A stretch of DNA of 64,000 nt. It comes from an uncultured Gemmatimonadaceae bacterium (GTDB taxonomy: Bacteria; Gemmatimonadota; Gemmatimonadetes; Gemmatimonadales; GWC2-71-9). This document shows positions 10,002-17,004 of this stretch, piece by piece (position 1 is the first letter of the stretch; each line of letters starts with the position of its first letter). The notes beneath the pieces were generated by a model, which made no database searches, was not told the origin of the DNA, and saw only the letters and a list, made by a program, of their open reading frames with translations. A program made the translations under genes and the position numbers. Location of the stretch: assembly GCA_964647615.1 (NCBI GenBank), contig CAZYIV010000008.1, positions 910-64,909 of the forward strand. Reading direction: 5' to 3'.

Positions 10002-10724
10002 ATGACGCCCTCGCCCGTCCACTACATCCCGATCGCGACCACTGTCCTGGCCCTCGCCTTCGCGGTGGTGCTGTTCCGCCGCTACCAGGTGAAGGGCGGG
10101 CCGCACCTGCTCTGGTGGGGCATCGGGATGCTGACTTACGCGGCCGGCACCATCACCGAGTCGGCCACCACGCTCTTCGGCTGGCACGAGCCGGTGTTCC
10201 GGCTGTGGTACATCACCGGCGCGCTGCTCGGCGGCGCCCCCCTGGCGCAGGGCACGGTGTACCTGATGCTCTCCCGCAAGGCGGCCAACCGGCTCACGGT
10301 GGTGCTGGTGACGGCGATCGTGGTGGGGGCGGCGCTGGTGTGGGCCTCGCCCATCCGCCCGGAGCTGGTCGAGACCCACCGGCTCTCGGGCAAGGTGCTG
10401 GGCTGGCCCTGGGTCCGCCTGATCAGCCCCTTCATCAACACCTATGCGCTGGTCTTCCTGATGGGCGGGGCGATCGTCTCGGCAGTGCGCTACGCGCGGC
10501 GCACCGAGACCCGCCAGCGGGCGCTGGCCAACGTCTGCATCGCGGTGGGGGCGCTCCTGCCGGGGATCGGCGGGACCTTCACCCGGCTGGGGCACGTCGA
10601 GGTGCTCTACGTGACGGAGTTCCTCGGGCTGGTGCTGATCGCGATGGGCTACCGGCTGAGCATCACCTCGCCGGCGGCGGAGCGCAGCATCCACGCGGCC
10701 CAGCAGGCCGCGGCGACCGCCTGA
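10002..10724 (+). CDS. Conserved multi-pass (about 6-7 TM) membrane protein of unknown function
   Basis: 240 aa of alternating hydrophobic helices with GC-typical codon use. No motif recognised. Confidence 0.75.
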   Translation: MTPSPVHYIPIATTVLALAFAVVLFRRYQVKGGPHLLWWGIGMLTYAAGTITESATTLFGWHEPVFRLWYITGALLGGAPLAQGTVYLMLSRKAANRLTVVLVTAIVVGAALVWASPIRPELVETHRLSGKVLGWPWVRLISPFINTYALVFLMGGAIVSAVRYARRTETRQRALANVCIAVGALLPGIGGTFTRLGHVEVLYVTEFLGLVLIAMGYRLSITSPAAERSIHAAQQAAATA

Positions 10725-10734
10725 CCCGGGCGGG

Positions 10735-11412
10735 TCAGCCCATCAACCGGCGCCGCTCATCCTCGGTGAGCGGCGTCGCGCTTTCCGAGGTGAAGTAGAC
10801 CGGCACCTCGAAAGTGACCCCGAAGTCGATCCCCGGGACCACCGCCTTCGCCTCGAGGTCCCAGCGGACCACGTCGCTGGCGTGGCGATTGTCGGTGGGC
10901 GTGGCATCCTCCGGGATCGCGAACGCCACCGGGATCCGCACCCCCGCCCCCTCGCCCAGGGCCCCGGGAAGCTGGCGTTCCGCCTCCCACAGGACCGTGG
11001 TCGTGGTGCTCCGGCTCTTGCCCGAGCCGGTGGTGACCACCCGCACGCACTTGAGCCGGAGCCGGATGTCGGCCTCGGGCTCGAGGCCGCGCTCCACCCG
11101 GATCTCGCCGGCCAGCGCCCGCCCCACCACGCCGGGCCGGGTGGCCAGGACGAACACCGGCGAGCCGTAGCGCCGCCGCCGGAGCAGCACCCGCACCGTC
11201 AGCACCAGCAGCAGGAGGCCCACCAGCGGGAACAGCAGCACGAAGTACCGCCCCGCGCTGTCGTCCTGGAGGAAGACGATGGGGAACGCCACGCCCCAGC
11301 TGATGGCGTTCCACACCAGCGTGAGCCCCACCAGCACGCAGCCGGCGTTCTTGTTGTCCTCCTCGATCCGGCCGGAGGCCCACTTCTCCCCCGCCCACGG
11401 GTCACCCGTCAC
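10735..11412 (-). CDS. Hypothetical protein with two TM helices and an arrestin/Ig-like C-terminal region
   Basis: PW..EKWASGRI, two hydrophobic segments, then a beta-rich region (WDLEAKAVVPGIDFGVTFEVPV). The GTG start overlaps the sseA stop (GTGA). The fold assignment is inference. Confidence 0.65.
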   Translation of the reverse strand: MTGDPWAGEKWASGRIEEDNKNAGCVLVGLTLVWNAISWGVAFPIVFLQDDSAGRYFVLLFPLVGLLLLVLTVRVLLRRRRYGSPVFVLATRPGVVGRALAGEIRVERGLEPEADIRLRLKCVRVVTTGSGKSRSTTTTVLWEAERQLPGALGEGAGVRIPVAFAIPEDATPTDNRHASDVVRWDLEAKAVVPGIDFGVTFEVPVYFTSESATPLTEDERRRLMG

Positions 11413-12269
11413 CGGGCCGGCCCCGTGACCACCGGGCGGCCGCTGCCGGCCCACTCGGTCCACGACCCGTCGAACAGCGCCGCCGGCGCGGCGCCGAGCT
11501 GCTCCAGCGCCAGCAGCAGGCTGCAGGCGGAGGTACCCGAGCCGCAGCTCGCGATGACCGGCCGGGCCGGGTCAACGCCGGCCGCGAGGAGGCGCGCGCG
11601 CAGCGCCGCCGGCGGCAGCAGGGTTCCATCAGGGCCCACCAGGTCCGCATACGGCAGGTTGCGCGCGCCGGGCATGTGCCCGCTCGGGATGCCCTCGCGC
11701 GGCTCCGGGTCCCGACCCTCGAAGCGCCCCGCCGGCCGGCAGTCCACCACCTGCGCCGAGCCATCCGCCAGTGCGGCCGCCACCTCCGCGGCCGCGCGCA
11801 CCTGACCCCGGTCGAGCCGGGCCCCGAACCGCGCCGGCGCCACCACCGGCATCCCCGCCTCGAGCGGGCGGCCTTCCGCCTGCCAGCGGGGCAGCCCGCC
11901 ATCCAGCAGCGCCACGGCGGCGTGCCCATAGGCGCGGAACATCCACCACACCCGCGCCGCGCTCAGGTTGGTGCCGGAGCCGTCGTACACCACCACCGCG
12001 CTCGTGGCCCCCACGCCGAGTGCCCCGGCATAGGCGGCGAAGGCCGCCTCGGTCGGAAGCATGTGCGGCAGTGGCGTGTCGTGGTCGCTGGCGGCGTCGA
12101 GGTCGAAGAACCGTGCCCCGGGCAGGTGCCCGGCAGTGAACTCGGCTCGCGCGTCCCGGCCCGAGGTGGGCAGGTACCAGGAGGTGTCGAGGATCACCAG
12201 TGCCGGGTCGCCCAGGCGCCCGGCGAGCCAGGCAGTGCTGACCACGGCAGGAATTGAGAAGGGAGGCAT
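11409..12269 (-). CDS. sseA: 3-mercaptopyruvate/thiosulfate sulfurtransferase (tandem rhodanese)
   Basis: GHLPGARFFD, HMLP, ARVWWM, LDGGL, GHMPGA, active site CGSGTSAC and FDGSWTEW. Confidence 0.93.
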   Translation of the reverse strand: MPPFSIPAVVSTAWLAGRLGDPALVILDTSWYLPTSGRDARAEFTAGHLPGARFFDLDAASDHDTPLPHMLPTEAAFAAYAGALGVGATSAVVVYDGSGTNLSAARVWWMFRAYGHAAVALLDGGLPRWQAEGRPLEAGMPVVAPARFGARLDRGQVRAAAEVAAALADGSAQVVDCRPAGRFEGRDPEPREGIPSGHMPGARNLPYADLVGPDGTLLPPAALRARLLAAGVDPARPVIASCGSGTSACSLLLALEQLGAAPAALFDGSWTEWAGSGRPVVTGPAR

Positions 12270-12321
12270 GCTGGGGCCGTATCATAGCTGGAACCCGGAC
12301 CCCGAGCGAGAGGAGCCACCG

Positions 12322-12903
12322 ATGTCACCCCGGACCGCCCTGCTGGCCGCAGCCCTCGGCCTGAGCTTGCCGCTCGCCGCGCAGCAGCGGCACGTCGTGG
12401 TGAACCGCGTGGCGCTCACCGATGCCCAGGTCCGTGACATCGAGACCCGCTGGACGGTGCAGGTACGCGATGGACGCTACTGGTACGACCGCCTCTCCGG
12501 GGCGTGGGGGATGGACGGCGGGCCAACTGCGGGATGGATCCTGCCCGGCCTCGAGGTCGGTGGCCCCCTCCCCGCCGACGCCTCGGCCGGCAACACCGGC
12601 GTGTTCATCAACGGCCGCCAGCTGCCCGTGGCCGACGTGGCGGCGCTGATGCAGATCACCCCGGTCTACCGCGGCCGCTGGTGGGTGGACGGGCAGGGGA
12701 ACTTCGGCGCCGAGGGCGGCCCGGTGCTGGGCAACCTCATCGCGCTGGTGCGGCAGCGGACCGGCCGGGCGGGCGGCCCCTGGTCGGTGTACGCCAACAA
12801 GGGGAACGACTTCATCGCCGGCGACGGCAACGGGTGCACCTACTTCAACAGCCGGGACAACGGCACTGGCAGCAGCACCTCCTGGGCGTCGCCCGGCTGC
12901 TGA
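12322..12903 (+). CDS. Secreted hypothetical protein with internal two-fold repeat; resembles the plant XLG/EDR4 domain
   Basis: It reads on the + strand in the sequence (ATG 12322 after a GAGGAG RBS, TGA 12901-12903). Signal peptide MSPRTALLAAALGLSLPLAA. Motifs GRYWYD..SG.WG and GNTGVFINGR. Confidence 0.8.
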   Translation: MSPRTALLAAALGLSLPLAAQQRHVVVNRVALTDAQVRDIETRWTVQVRDGRYWYDRLSGAWGMDGGPTAGWILPGLEVGGPLPADASAGNTGVFINGRQLPVADVAALMQITPVYRGRWWVDGQGNFGAEGGPVLGNLIALVRQRTGRAGGPWSVYANKGNDFIAGDGNGCTYFNSRDNGTGSSTSWASPGC

Positions 12904-12925
12904 AGACTTCTCCCCCGTGCGCCAG

Positions 12926-12957
12926 GGGCCCTGCCACCCGACGGTGACAGGGCCCCT
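12926..12957. terminator. Hairpin between convergent genes
   Basis: GGGGCCCTG...CAGGGCCCC inverted repeat between the stops at 12903 and 12982. Coordinates are approximate. Confidence 0.45.
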
Positions 12958-12981
12958 CGTGCCACTGGCAACCCGCCGCCG

Positions 12982-14358
12982 CTAGTCCCGGCCCAGCCCC
13001 TCGGCCGCGGCCCGCCGGATCTCGGCGTCCCCGTCCTTGAGCGCCCGGACCAGGAAGGGCCTGGCCACCTCACCGTCGAGGCTGCCCAGCGCCTCCACGA
13101 CCGCCAGCCGGACCTGCTTGACCGGATCGTCCATCGCCGCGCCGAGGGCCTGGGCGGTGGCCCGGTCCCCGATCGAGCCGAGCGCCTCCGCCGCCATCGC
13201 CCGGACGTCCGGGTCCTTGTCCCGCAGTGCGTCGGTGAGCCCCGCCGGCGCGCGCTCCAGCTCATCGAGCGAACCGAGAGCCTCGATCGCCTGCACCCGG
13301 ACCCGCTGGTCGGGGTCCTTGAGCAGCCGGGCGAGCGGCCCCGCCGCGGCGGGATCCTCGAGGCTGCCCAACGCACCGGCCGCCGCGGCCCGTACCGCGG
13401 CCTCACTGTCACCCAGCGCGCGGATGAGGCCGGGCACCGCGCGTCGGTCCTCGATGCTGCCGAGGGCCTCCGCCGCCGCGACGCGCACGGCGGGCACCGG
13501 GTCGTTCAGCAGCGCCACCAGGGCCATCGTGGCGTCCGGGTCCTCGATGGAGCCCAGCGCACCGGCCGCCTCCTCCCGCACGCCGGCGTCGCGGTCGCGC
13601 AGCGCGCCGACCAGCGGCTGCGTCGCCTTCCGGTCCTCGATGCTGCCGAGCGCACTCGCCGCGGTGCGGCGGAGCAGCGGATCGGAGCCGCGGAGCAGGT
13701 CCACCAGCGTGCCCACCGCCCGGGCATCCTCGTATTCGCCGAGCGCCCACGCGGCGAGCCGCACCACGCCGCCGTCGCGGTCGTCGGCCGCGCGCAGCAC
13801 GTCGGCAAACGCCTCCGGCCATTCCCCGATCCCCAGTCCAAGCAGCGCGGCCTCACGCACCCGGACATCCGTGCTCTTGAGGGCACCGCGCAGCCCGCTC
13901 AGGGCCTCCGGCAACTGACTGCCGCCCAGCAGCTGCGCCGCCGCCCGGCGCGGACACGGCTCGGTGCCGGCGAGCGCCGCGAGCAACGGCGGGACGGCAT
14001 GCGGGTCGCGCAGCCGGCCCTGGAAGGCCAGGCGCCGATCGTCGGCGGCGGTGTTCTGGTCGCGGAGCGCGGAGTACTCCCTCCCGCCCCGCCACCAGCC
14101 ATTGCCCACCATGTCCACCGCGAGGGCGCAGACCGCCGGCTCCGTGGTACGGAGTGCGGCGAGCAGTCCCACCACCGCCGCCGAGTCCGGCCCGGGGCGA
14201 TCGTCGTCATGCATCAGGGCTCCCCGGAAGTGCATCGCCCGGGGGGGCCGCGGCGGGCGCGGGGCGGCCAGGACCGCCATCGGCGGGTGGGGCGCGCGCG
14301 GCGGCGCCGGCGTCACCACTGCCACCTGCAGCGCGGCGAGGGTCAGGGTAACGATCAT
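12982..14358 (-). CDS. HEAT-repeat protein, probably exported
   Basis: About 9 repeats of D.D..VR.AAA.ALG.IED..A...L and a hydrophobic N-terminus. ATGA overlap with the upstream M56 gene. Confidence 0.9.
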   Translation of the reverse strand: MIVTLTLAALQVAVVTPAPPRAPHPPMAVLAAPRPPRPPRAMHFRGALMHDDDRPGPDSAAVVGLLAALRTTEPAVCALAVDMVGNGWWRGGREYSALRDQNTAADDRRLAFQGRLRDPHAVPPLLAALAGTEPCPRRAAAQLLGGSQLPEALSGLRGALKSTDVRVREAALLGLGIGEWPEAFADVLRAADDRDGGVVRLAAWALGEYEDARAVGTLVDLLRGSDPLLRRTAASALGSIEDRKATQPLVGALRDRDAGVREEAAGALGSIEDPDATMALVALLNDPVPAVRVAAAEALGSIEDRRAVPGLIRALGDSEAAVRAAAAGALGSLEDPAAAGPLARLLKDPDQRVRVQAIEALGSLDELERAPAGLTDALRDKDPDVRAMAAEALGSIGDRATAQALGAAMDDPVKQVRLAVVEALGSLDGEVARPFLVRALKDGDAEIRRAAAEGLGRD

Positions 14359-16613
14359 TGCCAGTCCTCATCGCGCTGGCCCAGGGCCTCGGCCGCCTGC
14401 CGCCGGACCACCGGGTCGGTGGAGCGAAGCGCGCCCACCAGGGTCTCGAGCGCCGCCTGGTCGCGGATCTCGCCCAGGGCGGACACCGCCGACTCGCGCA
14501 CGTCCGCGTTGCTGTCACCGAGGAGCGCCTTCAGCGTAGCGACACCGGCGGGGTCACCGATCTCGCCCAGCGCGTTGGCCAGGGCCTGGCGCACATCGGC
14601 GCTCCGGTCGGTGCGGAGTTCGAGCAGGCGGGGCGGAATCTTCTTGAGGTGCATGCTCGCCACGCCCTCGATCGCGAGCTGCCGCATCTCGGCGGAGGAG
14701 TCGCCCAGCAGGCCCACGAAGGTGGACTCCAATTTCGGGTCGGGGGCGGCATTCTCGTCCCGATCGTTGGCCCGGGAGAGCGCCAGCGACAGGCCGGCCA
14801 GCCGGACCTCAGGATCGGCGTCGGCAATCGCCGCGTAGATCGCCTCCGGGGGCACGCCCCCCTCGAAGTTGGAGAGCGCGCCGAGCGCCTGGCGCCGCAC
14901 CTCGGGCGACTTGTCCTTCAGGAGGCCCACGAGGCCCGGCACCGCGCGGCGGTCCTCCAGCTCACCCAGCGCCTCCGCCGCCGAGGCCCGCACCTCGGTG
15001 TCGGTGTCGCCGAGCGCGGTGATCAGCGCCGGCACGGCCCGCACGTCCGAGAGGTTGGCGAGACTCGCCGCGGCGGCCCGGCGCACCTCCACCACCGGGT
15101 CCTTGAGCGCCGCGATCAGCGCCGGCACCGCGATGTTGGTGGTGTCCCGGCGCCGCTCCGGCCGGGGCCAGTCGCGCGCCCGCCAGGCATCCAGCCGGGC
15201 CGCCACCGCGGCCATGCCCGGCGGCGGTGTCGGGGCCCGCGGGGCCTCCGGCGCGCGCGGAGCCACCACCGCGATATCCGGCATCGGTGCAATGGCCGGC
15301 ATCGGGGCGCGCGGCGGCCGGGGTGGGCGCATCCGGGCAAGGGCCCGCTCGGCGTCGAGCTGGGCGCGGACGCTGCTGCTCCGCATCCGGCTGAGCAGGC
15401 GCCGATAGGCGGAGGTCATCGGACTCCGTGCCTCCACCATCACCGTGTCCTGCCGTTCGGCGGCCACGCTGTCGGGCCGCACCGGCTGCTGCGCCTCGGC
15501 GGTCACGGTGGGAACAGCGAGGGCGGTCACGCCGAGCAGCAGCAGCGCGCCCCCGGCGAGCCAGATCGAGCGGGGCGAAGCGGACATCGTACGACCCTCC
15601 AGGAGGCGGTGAATGCGGGTGACGAGCTGCGAGCGGCGCTCGGCCATGCCGGCAAGCGGCAGCGGCTGCGGCGCGGCGGTGACCCATTCCGCCACCTTGA
15701 GCAGGCAGGTCGCGAGGGACATCCCCGAGCCGGTGCGATGCACCGCCCAGTCGTCGCAGAGATATTCGGCCGCTTCCTGCAGCCGGATGCGGGCCAGCCG
15801 GTTGAGCGGCTGGAAGAAGAAGGCGCGCTCCATCACGCAGCCGAGCGCCAGCCACAGCGGGTCAAGCCGGACCAGGTGCGCCAGCTCGTGCGCCAGCAGG
15901 CCGCGCTGCTGCGCCGGATCCAGCTCGGTGAGCGCCGCGTCCGGCAGCGCAATCTCCCGCCAGCCCAGCGCCACAGGGCTGGCGAGCCCCGGCGCCCGGG
16001 TCAGTCGGATGGGGCGCCGCACCCCGGCGTCGGCGCGGAGGCCGTCGAGCATGGCGAGCAGCGCGGGGTCGGTGACCGGCACCCGCGGCCCCATGCCGCG
16101 GAATGTGTGGAACCGCTGCCCGGCGTAGGCCAGGAGCAGCGCCCCGCCGATGACGCCCCACCCGATCAGCGCGAGCGCCATCCCGGACAGCGGCGCGCGC
16201 GCCGGGGCCGGTGGCTCCGGCGTGGTCGCCTCGAGCCCGGAGACCGGCGCCGATGGAGGCACCGACCTGGCCGGCTCCGCTGCGACAGCGGCGAGCCTCC
16301 GGCTCGCCTCGAGCGCCGGGACCAGTCCCCGCCACGACTCGGCCCCGCCATCCGGGGCCGTGACCGCCGCGTCGGAGGCAGGTGTCGAGCGGGCCAGCGA
16401 GACCACGCCGCCCATCGGTTCGAGGTCGAGCACCGCCTGGGCGCTGGCGGTGATGAGGCCCCCGACCAGCGCGGCCTTCCACAGCCATTCCCGACGCGGC
16501 GCCGTCTCGGGCCGCCACCGGGTGAGCACCCAGGCGAGCCCCAGCAGCAGCGTGCTGTGGAGGGTGTAGGTCAGCAGCCAGCTGCCGGCGAGAAGTTCGA
16601 GGTCAGTCCGCAT
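14355..16613 (-). CDS. BlaR1-like M56 metallopeptidase with C-terminal HEAT repeats
   Basis: LAHELAHL zinc motif, FFQPL, AEYLCDD, TM helices, then HEAT repeats. Start at the ATG of MRTDLELL. Confidence 0.92.
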   Translation of the reverse strand: MRTDLELLAGSWLLTYTLHSTLLLGLAWVLTRWRPETAPRREWLWKAALVGGLITASAQAVLDLEPMGGVVSLARSTPASDAAVTAPDGGAESWRGLVPALEASRRLAAVAAEPARSVPPSAPVSGLEATTPEPPAPARAPLSGMALALIGWGVIGGALLLAYAGQRFHTFRGMGPRVPVTDPALLAMLDGLRADAGVRRPIRLTRAPGLASPVALGWREIALPDAALTELDPAQQRGLLAHELAHLVRLDPLWLALGCVMERAFFFQPLNRLARIRLQEAAEYLCDDWAVHRTGSGMSLATCLLKVAEWVTAAPQPLPLAGMAERRSQLVTRIHRLLEGRTMSASPRSIWLAGGALLLLGVTALAVPTVTAEAQQPVRPDSVAAERQDTVMVEARSPMTSAYRRLLSRMRSSSVRAQLDAERALARMRPPRPPRAPMPAIAPMPDIAVVAPRAPEAPRAPTPPPGMAAVAARLDAWRARDWPRPERRRDTTNIAVPALIAALKDPVVEVRRAAAASLANLSDVRAVPALITALGDTDTEVRASAAEALGELEDRRAVPGLVGLLKDKSPEVRRQALGALSNFEGGVPPEAIYAAIADADPEVRLAGLSLALSRANDRDENAAPDPKLESTFVGLLGDSSAEMRQLAIEGVASMHLKKIPPRLLELRTDRSADVRQALANALGEIGDPAGVATLKALLGDSNADVRESAVSALGEIRDQAALETLVGALRSTDPVVRRQAAEALGQRDEDWQ

Positions 16614-17004
16614 GGTTGGTCCTCCGCCGGGCCTGCTCGGCCCGTTCGACGATCGCCCGCAGCTGGGCGAGGTCACCGGGAGAGACTTCCTCGGTGCTCA
16701 CGAGGTGGGACATCAGGGCGGTCACGTCGCCGCCGAACAGCTGCTCGGTCAGCTCGCTCACCATCGAGTGGCGGACGTCCGCCTCGGTGACCAGGGCCTG
16801 GTACACGTACTGGCGGCTCCGGGTCTCATGGCGGACGACGCCGCGCTTCTCCAGCCGGGAGAGCAGCGTCGCCACCGTGGTGAGGGCCAGCCCGCGCTCG
16901 TCGCGCAGCGCCTCGCAGATCTCGGCCACGGTGGCCTGGCCCCGCTCCCATAACACCCGGAGGAGGGCGATCTGGAGCTCGGTCAATTGATGGATGTCGG
17001 ACAC
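16603..17004 (-). CDS. BlaI/MecI/CopY family repressor
   Basis: LTELQIALLRVLW..GQATV, TTVATLLSRLEKRG and Y.Y.ALVTE. GTG start with a GAGGGAG RBS. Confidence 0.95.
   Translation of the reverse strand: MSDIHQLTELQIALLRVLWERGQATVAEICEALRDERGLALTTVATLLSRLEKRGVVRHETRSRQYVYQALVTEADVRHSMVSELTEQLFGGDVTALMSHLVSTEEVSPGDLAQLRAIVERAEQARRRTNHAD

Follow-up and report, generated by a model that had tools for sequence, protein, structure and literature searches.

What would a small, apparently exported bacterial protein be doing with a domain otherwise associated with plant signalling proteins? This question is raised by a protein of 193 amino acids (aa) encoded on the forward strand at positions 12322-12903 of a 64,000-nucleotide stretch of contig CAZYIV010000008.1 (hereafter the window, 64 kb in length), from an uncultured, soil-type Gemmatimonadaceae bacterium. 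A preliminary description had likened this window protein to the "plant-specific" N-terminal domain of the extra-large G proteins (XLG) and of ENHANCED DISEASE RESISTANCE 4 (EDR4). XLGs are central to plant immunity and development, and EDR4 has links with clathrin heavy chain and the EDR1 kinase. XLGs are reported to be about twice the size of a canonical G-alpha (PMC13185490), and their N-terminal half is described as uncharacterised and plant-specific in a 2026 review and a 2025 preprint (PMC13185490; bioRxiv 10.1101/2025.06.18.660248). The explanation that best accounts for the results presented here, and in which we place fairly high confidence, is that the window gene encodes a putatively exported two-repeat core, homologous to a domain of XLG, EDR4 and a fungal protein, which is probably of bacterial origin and would serve as a binding module.

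A core in common with plant XLG and EDR4 proteins

The plant sequences were retrieved with XLG and EDR4 probes, which served only to bring up genuine database sequences and on which no conclusion rests. XLG-type fragments were obtained from chromosomes of Malus, Gypsophila, Tagetes and Camellia, and a fragment from Trifolium medium (P0129) bears the database name "extra-large guanine nucleotide-binding protein 1-like." A Cys-rich region precedes the domain in P0121, P0133 and P0203, and three fragments run into G-alpha, namely P0131 (PF00503) and P0126 and P0135, both of which reach the P-loop region. The EDR4-type sequences include entries named "protein ENHANCED DISEASE RESISTANCE" (Trifolium repens) and "putative protein enhanced disease resistance 4" (Helianthus), and fragments named "Extra-large G-like protein" come from Quillaja and Salix. 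Proteins of the streptophyte alga Closterium were also found, one of which (P0391) is fused to a PF11331 zinc ribbon.

All these groups are recognized by a hidden Markov model (HMM A1) built from Gemmatimonadota-type bacterial sequences only, with E-values calculated for 5.77e9 sequences. The XLG-type fragments P0126, P0129 and P0121 score 1.2e-19, 4.7e-17 and 1.7e-15, respectively. The EDR4-type fragments range from 2.5e-20 to 1e-13, including P0356 ("Extra-large G-like protein," 1.1e-16), P0354 ("protein ENHANCED DISEASE RESISTANCE," 1.5e-15) and P0366 (EDR4, 6.4e-14), and the Closterium proteins P0438 and P0391 reach 4.5e-16 and 2.2e-14. In pairwise searches (BLASTP) the window protein matches the plant fragments with 36-44% identity over 60-125 residues, at E-values of 1e-11 to 1e-19; the match to P0126 (E 3e-19) has 39% identity over 88 aa, and that to P0121 an E-value of 6e-14. 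Conversely, nine plant-side queries were run, of the XLG and EDR4 types (two from Closterium, some from metagenome contigs), and every one of them finds nearly the whole set of 330 bacterial sequences (E < 1e-3), at identities of up to 52%. The two sides are bridged by the bacterial protein P0136, which is 47-52% identical to the XLG-type fragments P0126 and P0129 and 38% identical to the window protein.

The shared motifs are collinear over about 110 residues and extend through both repeats of the core. In an alignment of 51 bacterial and plant sequences (A4), N28, Y53-W54-Y55-D56, G60, W62-G63, G90 and N97-G98-R99 are invariant, and an S-x-G-x-T motif is nearly invariant from bacteria to plants. 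Judged from these comparisons, the bacterial core is almost certainly homologous to the conserved domain of XLG and EDR4. The resemblance first proposed is therefore borne out by significant profile and BLASTP matches to XLG- and EDR4-type fragments, together with the collinear motifs. Two of the terms used in the preliminary description need correction, however. The domain is not N-terminal, since in XLG it is located between the Cys-rich region and G-alpha and in EDR4-type proteins it is C-terminal, following PF11331. Nor is it plant-specific, since it is also present in Mortierellaceae fungi, where it is fused to a WW domain.

XLG1-3 share with the window protein the motifs VNG..L, G-YWYD-x2-SG-x-WG-x-EG, AS-x-GNT-x-[VI]-x-INGRE[IL] and FWV..DG.Y.EEG, with identities of 39-44%. 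By contrast, XLGs are cytosolic or nuclear and include a nuclear localization signal (NLS), a Cys-rich region and G-alpha, whereas the window protein is a stand-alone protein of 193 aa, predicted to be exported, with a β-rich tail and putative disulfide that plant XLGs lack. It is not an XLG proper: it has no Pfam match, its open reading frame (ORF) ends at 12903, and in place of an NLS and a Cys-rich (CxxC) N-terminus it carries a putative signal peptide, its cysteines being confined to C173 and C193. EDR4-type proteins follow the bacterial consensus in repeat 1 and the linker (G-YWYD-x2-AG-FWG-x2-GGPCLGII, then GGNTGVFVNGRELH), but their repeat 2 has strongly diverged (SYIIEISGRVLDEDTGEEL..LGKLAP) and the bacterial β tail is missing. 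These proteins are cytosolic and fused to the zinc ribbon PF11331 (zinc_ribbon_12, formerly DUF3133); the window protein has no PF11331 upstream of its domain and is thus not a member of the EDR4 family either.

In Lotus japonicus, SXLG1/2 consist of the XLG N-terminal part alone, defined by the NLS and the Cys-rich region, meaning that this part can exist without G-alpha; the authors of that study found BLAST homologues in plants and some algae only (bioRxiv 10.1101/2025.06.18.660248). RHS/YD, MORN and choline-binding repeats are superficially alike in their Y-x-YD-x2-G motif. Unlike these repeats, the window protein has a helix in each unit and just two units within one globular domain, and its identification as an RHS/YD repeat protein was rejected, as no Pfam family, including the RHS_repeat and YD models, matches at E <= 10.

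Two repeats in a single predicted domain

The internal two-fold repeat that had been noticed in the sequence was recovered by two methods. Profiles of repeat 1 and repeat 2, built from about 100 bacterial sequences, align in hhalign over 48 columns with a probability of 98.2% (E 3.1e-14), and the two halves of the core (residues ~24-75 and ~93-141) match each other in BLASTP at E 7e-4. Repeat 1 and the linker (residues 24-92; 12391-12597, + strand) contain VVVN, a helix, GRYWYD, SGAWG and GGP, followed by LGGPLPADASAGN. Repeat 2 and the closing helix (residues 93-150; 12598-12771, +) contain TGVFINGRQL, a helix, GRWWVD and NFGAEGGP before the last helix. The C-terminal β-rich tail (residues 151-193; 12772-12900, +) includes C173 (12838-12840) and C193 (12898-12900). 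The peptide strings quoted in the preliminary description are all found in the 193-aa translation.

AlphaFold2 models the core (residues 22-150, from the 51 bacterial and plant sequences) with a predicted local distance difference test score (pLDDT) of 94.3 and a predicted template modelling score of 0.84. In the model, two strand-(strand)-helix-strand-strand units follow one another in tandem and a closing helix comes after them, which suggests that residues ~22-150 form one compact α/β domain of two tandem units of about 50 residues each. The model of the full-length protein, from a 28-sequence alignment, has a pLDDT of 79; confidence is low in the signal-peptide stretch, and the tail is modelled as a meander of four short strands with a pLDDT of 59-74. 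Beta-grasp, double-psi barrel and YD-repeat architectures, suggested at first by the Y-x-YD motif and the strand-helix-strand pattern, found no supporting match and were set aside.

Two family members, P0091 and P0120, carry one to three additional N-terminal units of about 50 residues (V.[IL]NG, then DG.Y.YD..SGA), from which it follows that the repeat unit can duplicate further. The orthologue P0118 shows an exact tandem duplication of seven residues (NGRQLHM NGRQLHM) within the most conserved motif, NGR, which may reflect either an error of assembly or an insertion that the protein tolerates.

A large and widespread bacterial family

A search for the window protein yields 417 homologues at E <= 1e-3 (90% clustering); among the best 120, almost every one is a Gemmatimonadota-type protein about 190 aa long. 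The family extends much further when a 28-sequence profile is run with HMMER against 1.84 billion cluster representatives: 1,996 clusters (50% identity) are matched at E <= 1e-3, 1,424 at <= 1e-10 and 580 at <= 1e-30. The family profile A2, which comprises the two repeats and the β tail, is matched by the window protein over its full length, although this protein is the founding member of the profile and its own match is not independent evidence. The family is present in at least 15 phyla. Among GTDB species representatives, members occur in Gemmatimonadota, Acidobacteriota, Bacteroidota, Pseudomonadota, Verrucomicrobiota and Planctomycetota; further members belong to Myxococcota, Bdellovibrionota, Thermodesulfobacteriota, Omnitrophota, Sumerlaeota, Eisenbacteria and Aminicenantes. 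A Nitrospira member was also detected. Cultured carriers are Sulfidibacter corallicola M133 and Gemmatirosa kalamazoonensis KBS708. The KBS708 homologue has 225 aa and an N-terminal membrane anchor or signal (L087, 2818-3495). It is encoded on plasmid 2 (NZ_CP007130.1, around position 503000), a non-mobilizable replicon of 1.04 Mb that has no gene annotation in PLSDB, whose gene table is incomplete.

Searches of the window protein against Pfam returned no family at E <= 10, and NCBIfam likewise gave no match even at an E-value of 10. The plant fragments and the bridging bacterial protein gave nothing significant in Pfam. Neither the bacterial nor the plant region is covered by a Pfam or NCBIfam model. 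In about half of the family representatives the N-terminus is extended by more than 60 residues, and these extensions are mostly unmodelled. The few modelled partners are lipocalin-like DUF5640, SHOCT, TPR and GYF_2, and some extensions are extra copies of the repeat. Several Gemmatimonadales metagenome-assembled genomes (MAGs) encode two paralogues each.

The window protein looks like a substrate of the Sec pathway. Its first 21 residues (12322-12384, +) form a putative signal peptide, judged by eye and with an uncertain cleavage site, in which the N-terminus (MSPRTALLAAALGLSLPLAAQ) displays a basic n-region, a hydrophobic core and a small-residue A-A-Q c-region. A signal peptide had already been claimed in the preliminary description; its pattern is kept in the orthologues, again by eye, and a hydrophobic N-terminal stretch is found in 96 of 145 family representatives. 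The two C-terminal cysteines that had been pointed out, C173 and C193, are the only Cys residues of the protein and co-vary across the family. Among 330 bacterial members, which are not phylogenetically independent, both are present in 150 and neither in 167, 13 retain the tail Cys only, and C173 never occurs alone. Such co-occurrence fits a disulfide and an extracytoplasmic location, and a C173-C193 bond probably pins the β tail.

A candidate binding module

The conservation pattern tentatively suggests a binding function. In the proposed mechanism, the bacterial protein would be a binding or adaptor module without catalytic activity, at work in the cell envelope or periplasm, and its ligand-contacting surface would be formed by the invariant YWYD, G-x-WG and NGR motifs together with the nearly invariant S-x-G-x-T. 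Most of the invariant residues are Gly, aromatic or turn residues and not a catalytic set. As no catalytic set is common to bacteria and plants (E41 and D86 are bacterial-only), the pattern is consistent with a non-catalytic role. The varied N-terminal partners in bacteria are consistent with the behavior of an adaptor domain, and the recruitment of the module beside WW, zinc ribbon and G-alpha domains in eukaryotes is consistent with the same reading.

Alternatively, the protein could be a cell-envelope enzyme, acting for instance on glycans or peptides through D56, S88 and R99 together with the bacterial-only residues E41, D86 and E131. Members of the bacterial family keep these polar residues conserved or even invariant, and for D56, S88 and R99, which are invariant or nearly so throughout, a catalytic role is conceivable and counts against a purely non-catalytic module. 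Aromatic clusters resembling YWY or WW are common among carbohydrate-active proteins, and the predicted export also accords with an envelope enzyme. However, E41 and D86 are lost in the plant homologues, no likeness to catalytic families was found in Pfam, NCBIfam or the PDB, and the domain is small and internally duplicated. In addition, the plant homologues are part of cytosolic or nuclear signalling proteins, for which no enzymatic role of this segment has been described (PMC13185490). An enzymatic function is thus considered unlikely, and the binding module is retained as the working interpretation in what follows.

Eukaryotic copies and the direction of transfer

The fungal copies (P0342) are annotated as "WW domain-containing protein" in Linnemannia gamsii, L. 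elongata, L. hyalina, Podila horticola and P. verticillata. The genes are present in at least five species of Mortierellaceae, on scaffolds of up to 4.3 Mb, and the proteins consist of a canonical WW domain, a Pro-rich linker and a complete bacterial-type module including the β tail. In L. gamsii (contig L085, 2579-3268) the gene is intronless, and the proteins have 228-229 aa. In a MAFFT alignment the Mortierellaceae protein OAQ29353.1 is 41% identical to the window protein and carries the bacterial-type GGDGQGFTYF..KD β tail; unlike the window protein, it is the product of an intronless nuclear gene, lacks a signal peptide and has the WW domain and Pro-rich linker. A EukProt match from Leptophrys vorax hardly differs from Closterium and probably comes from its prey.

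Relationships were examined in unrooted, bootstrapped neighbour-joining trees (custom script, 114 core columns). The XLG-type and EDR4-type sequences are each monophyletic in 100% of bootstraps but form a single plant clade in only ~1%. The XLG type pairs with the low-GC bacterial sequence L001/P0136 in 65-80% of bootstraps, and the fungal group lies near Gemmatimonadota paralogues. The XLG-type, EDR4-type and fungal copies thus form no single eukaryotic group in these rough trees. Mean distances among bacteria are small, whereas the plant groups sit on long separate branches. In pairwise scores, XLG- and EDR4-type sequences reach 80-102 bits against bacterial sequences and 40-73 bits against each other. 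The contig of L001/P0136 also carries an NHL-repeat-like neighbour.

As the bacterial family by far exceeds the eukaryotic one in size and diversity, the polarity is probably from bacteria to eukaryotes, and on these sequence comparisons the eukaryotic copies would likely descend from bacterial genes by horizontal transfer. That more than one such transfer took place is possible, though somewhat less likely than not. A fuller account, finely balanced between acceptance and doubt, is that of a binding module with a novel fold and a bacterial origin, which entered streptophytes possibly twice (EDR4 type and XLG type) and, independently, the Mortierellaceae. The EDR4-type entry would already be in place in Zygnematophyceae, and the XLG-type entry may have been separate. 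Each time, the acquired module would have been fused to a eukaryotic signalling module, that is, a zinc ribbon, G-alpha or WW domain. The preliminary description had regarded the window protein as a stand-alone bacterial version of a eukaryotic domain. Its stand-alone nature holds, but the derivation probably ran the other way, because the size and diversity of the bacterial family, along with the rough neighbour-joining trees, favor bacteria and not a eukaryote as the source.

The opposite course, a birth of the domain in a eukaryote (streptophyte or other) with later capture by bacteria and spread from one bacterium to the next, is quite improbable. The grouping of the XLG type with L001/P0136 could reflect, in that one lineage, a transfer from plant to bacterium, and the tree is unrooted. 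Nevertheless, a eukaryotic birth has to be set against 1,996 bacterial clusters in 15 or more phyla as compared with streptophytes and Mortierellaceae, the only eukaryotic sources named in probe searches that were no survey of eukaryotes, against the small bacterial distances beside long separate plant branches, and against the retention of the complete module with its β tail by bacterial and fungal proteins, of which plants have the core only.

Contrary evidence and further alternatives

Several points weigh against the exported binding module of bacterial origin. In structural terms, Foldseek finds no PDB neighbour for the full-length model (best E 0.72) or for the high-confidence core (best E 3.9, TM ~0.2), and a profile search of PDB sequences gave no match at E <= 10. 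BFVD, too, contains no neighbour of the full-length model (best E 0.32), and as far as Foldseek can tell the predicted core fold is absent from the PDB. The plant sequences are exon-level fragments only. The signal peptide call is a visual judgement, and about one-third of the family representatives have no obvious N-terminal hydrophobic stretch, meaning that export of all members is not required. For how many transfers took place, and in which direction, the basis is a rough distance tree, built on 114 columns, that has long plant branches and is prone to long-branch artefacts. The databases are mainly prokaryotic and the probe searches, in which streptophytes and Mortierellaceae are the only eukaryotic sources named, do not amount to a survey of eukaryotes. 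Gene neighbourhoods were compared at 63 of 87 loci, those where the rough gene calls included the family member; none of the partners is found again from phylum to phylum, and neighbours are common only to close Gemmatimonadales orthologues. The window gene thus behaves as a stand-alone unit, and its surroundings offer no clue to function. Finally, PHROGs gave a sub-threshold match only (E 0.037) and PADLOC no match.

A secreted toxin, bacteriocin or effector, or a targeting part of one, directed against competitors or hosts, would also be a small secreted protein encoded by a stand-alone gene with a patchy, multi-copy distribution, and Gemmatimonadales MAGs with two or more paralogues accord with this. 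One member, moreover, ends in a Peptidase_S74 chaperone of the phage tail-fibre type. Such a role is nonetheless highly improbable: no immunity-like gene is conserved next to the family, the Gemmatimonadales orthologue lies in stable synteny with housekeeping-type neighbours, PADLOC offers no match, no family match was found in phage records, and the sole plasmid match is the 1-Mb non-mobilizable replicon of KBS708. The member with the chaperone, P0340 (407 aa, metagenomic), comprises a lipocalin-like N-terminal region, the XLG-like module and the C-terminal Peptidase_S74, a type of domain characteristic of the tailspikes and tail fibres of phages (Pfam 1.7e-16; PHROG tail families down to 5e-28). 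This architecture hints at a module placed within a trimeric fibre.

The likelihood that the XLG/EDR4 resemblance is a chance or compositional match of Gly/Trp-rich segments is negligible. The motifs in common are indeed short, with many Gly and aromatic positions, but profile E-values of 1e-14 to 1e-20, pairwise scores of up to 102 bits, collinearity across both repeats and the intermediate P0136 all speak against it.

Implications for XLG and EDR4

A literature search, which was not exhaustive, found no report of bacterial or fungal homologues of the XLG/EDR4 domain. Database names like "extra-large G-like protein" already imply the similarity between XLG and EDR4; what is new is the large unmodelled bacterial family and the probable origin by horizontal transfer of a known but uncharacterised domain. 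The XLG N-terminal half would accordingly split in two, a Cys-rich part and a distinct globular domain of non-plant ancestry, and the shared module would tie XLG to EDR4 mechanistically. Its likely horizontal origin lies in soil-type bacteria, with a parallel gain in soil fungi.

Thousands of small bacterial homologues exist, two of them in cultured organisms (G. kalamazoonensis and S. corallicola), and they allow confident structure prediction. They also make crystallography, ligand screening and complementation of xlg/edr4 mutants by domain swaps feasible. If the homology and the binding role hold, these small soluble bacterial proteins would give practical access to the mechanism of the XLG N-terminal half and to its ligand, with G. 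kalamazoonensis KBS708 as a usable experimental system.

The gene and its surroundings

The coding sequence begins with an ATG at 12322 and comprises 193 codons and a TGA stop (12901-12903). A Shine-Dalgarno-like sequence (GAGAGGAG; 12308-12315, +), read directly from the sequence, lies 6 nucleotides (nt) 5' of the ATG. The GC content at third codon positions (GC3), taken in frame, is 0.93, compared with a GC content of 0.73 for the whole window. The 193-aa ORF is regarded as a real gene because of this GC3 value, the Shine-Dalgarno site and the 417 homologues. A longer ORF starting at 12061 is an upstream extension that is not common to the orthologues. The gene is the sole copy of the family within the 64-kb window.

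Between the window gene and the convergent HEAT-repeat gene, which are 78 nt apart, RNA folding predicts a GC-rich hairpin (12917-12965) of -41.1 kcal/mol (z = -3.66), which none of 200 shuffles equalled in stability and which is likely a bidirectional terminator without a U-tract. A consensus promoter and terminator scan found nothing, and an Rfam scan of the whole window gave no match.

The gene order in Gemmatimonadales is TonB-dependent receptor, two unmodelled proteins, rhodanese, window gene, HEAT-repeat protein, BlaR1-HEAT and BlaI. The rhodanese gene is upstream of, divergent from and 52 bp away from the window gene, and the downstream genes for the HEAT-repeat, BlaR1-type M56-HEAT and BlaI proteins are convergent to it. 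This trio is kept in Gemmatimonadales relatives. It consists of a BlaI-like repressor (16603-17004, -), followed by a BlaR1-type M56 peptidase (14355-16676, -), whose C-terminal half is made of HEAT repeats in place of the penicillin-binding sensor, and a separate HEAT-repeat protein of 458 aa (12982-14358, -).

The two unmodelled proteins are conserved neighbours without a Pfam match: a polytopic membrane protein of 240 aa (10002-10724, +) and a protein of 242 aa with predicted transmembrane segments (10735-11463, -). As listed, the 242-aa ORF and the 3' end of the rhodanese gene share 55 nt, and the true start of this ORF is probably further downstream. A second group of paralogues, in Gemmatimonadota (L035, L038, L066, L068 and L077; also L041), adjoins a convergent gene pair which, by sequence inspection, appears to encode an extracytoplasmic function (ECF) sigma factor and a zf-HC2-type anti-sigma factor.

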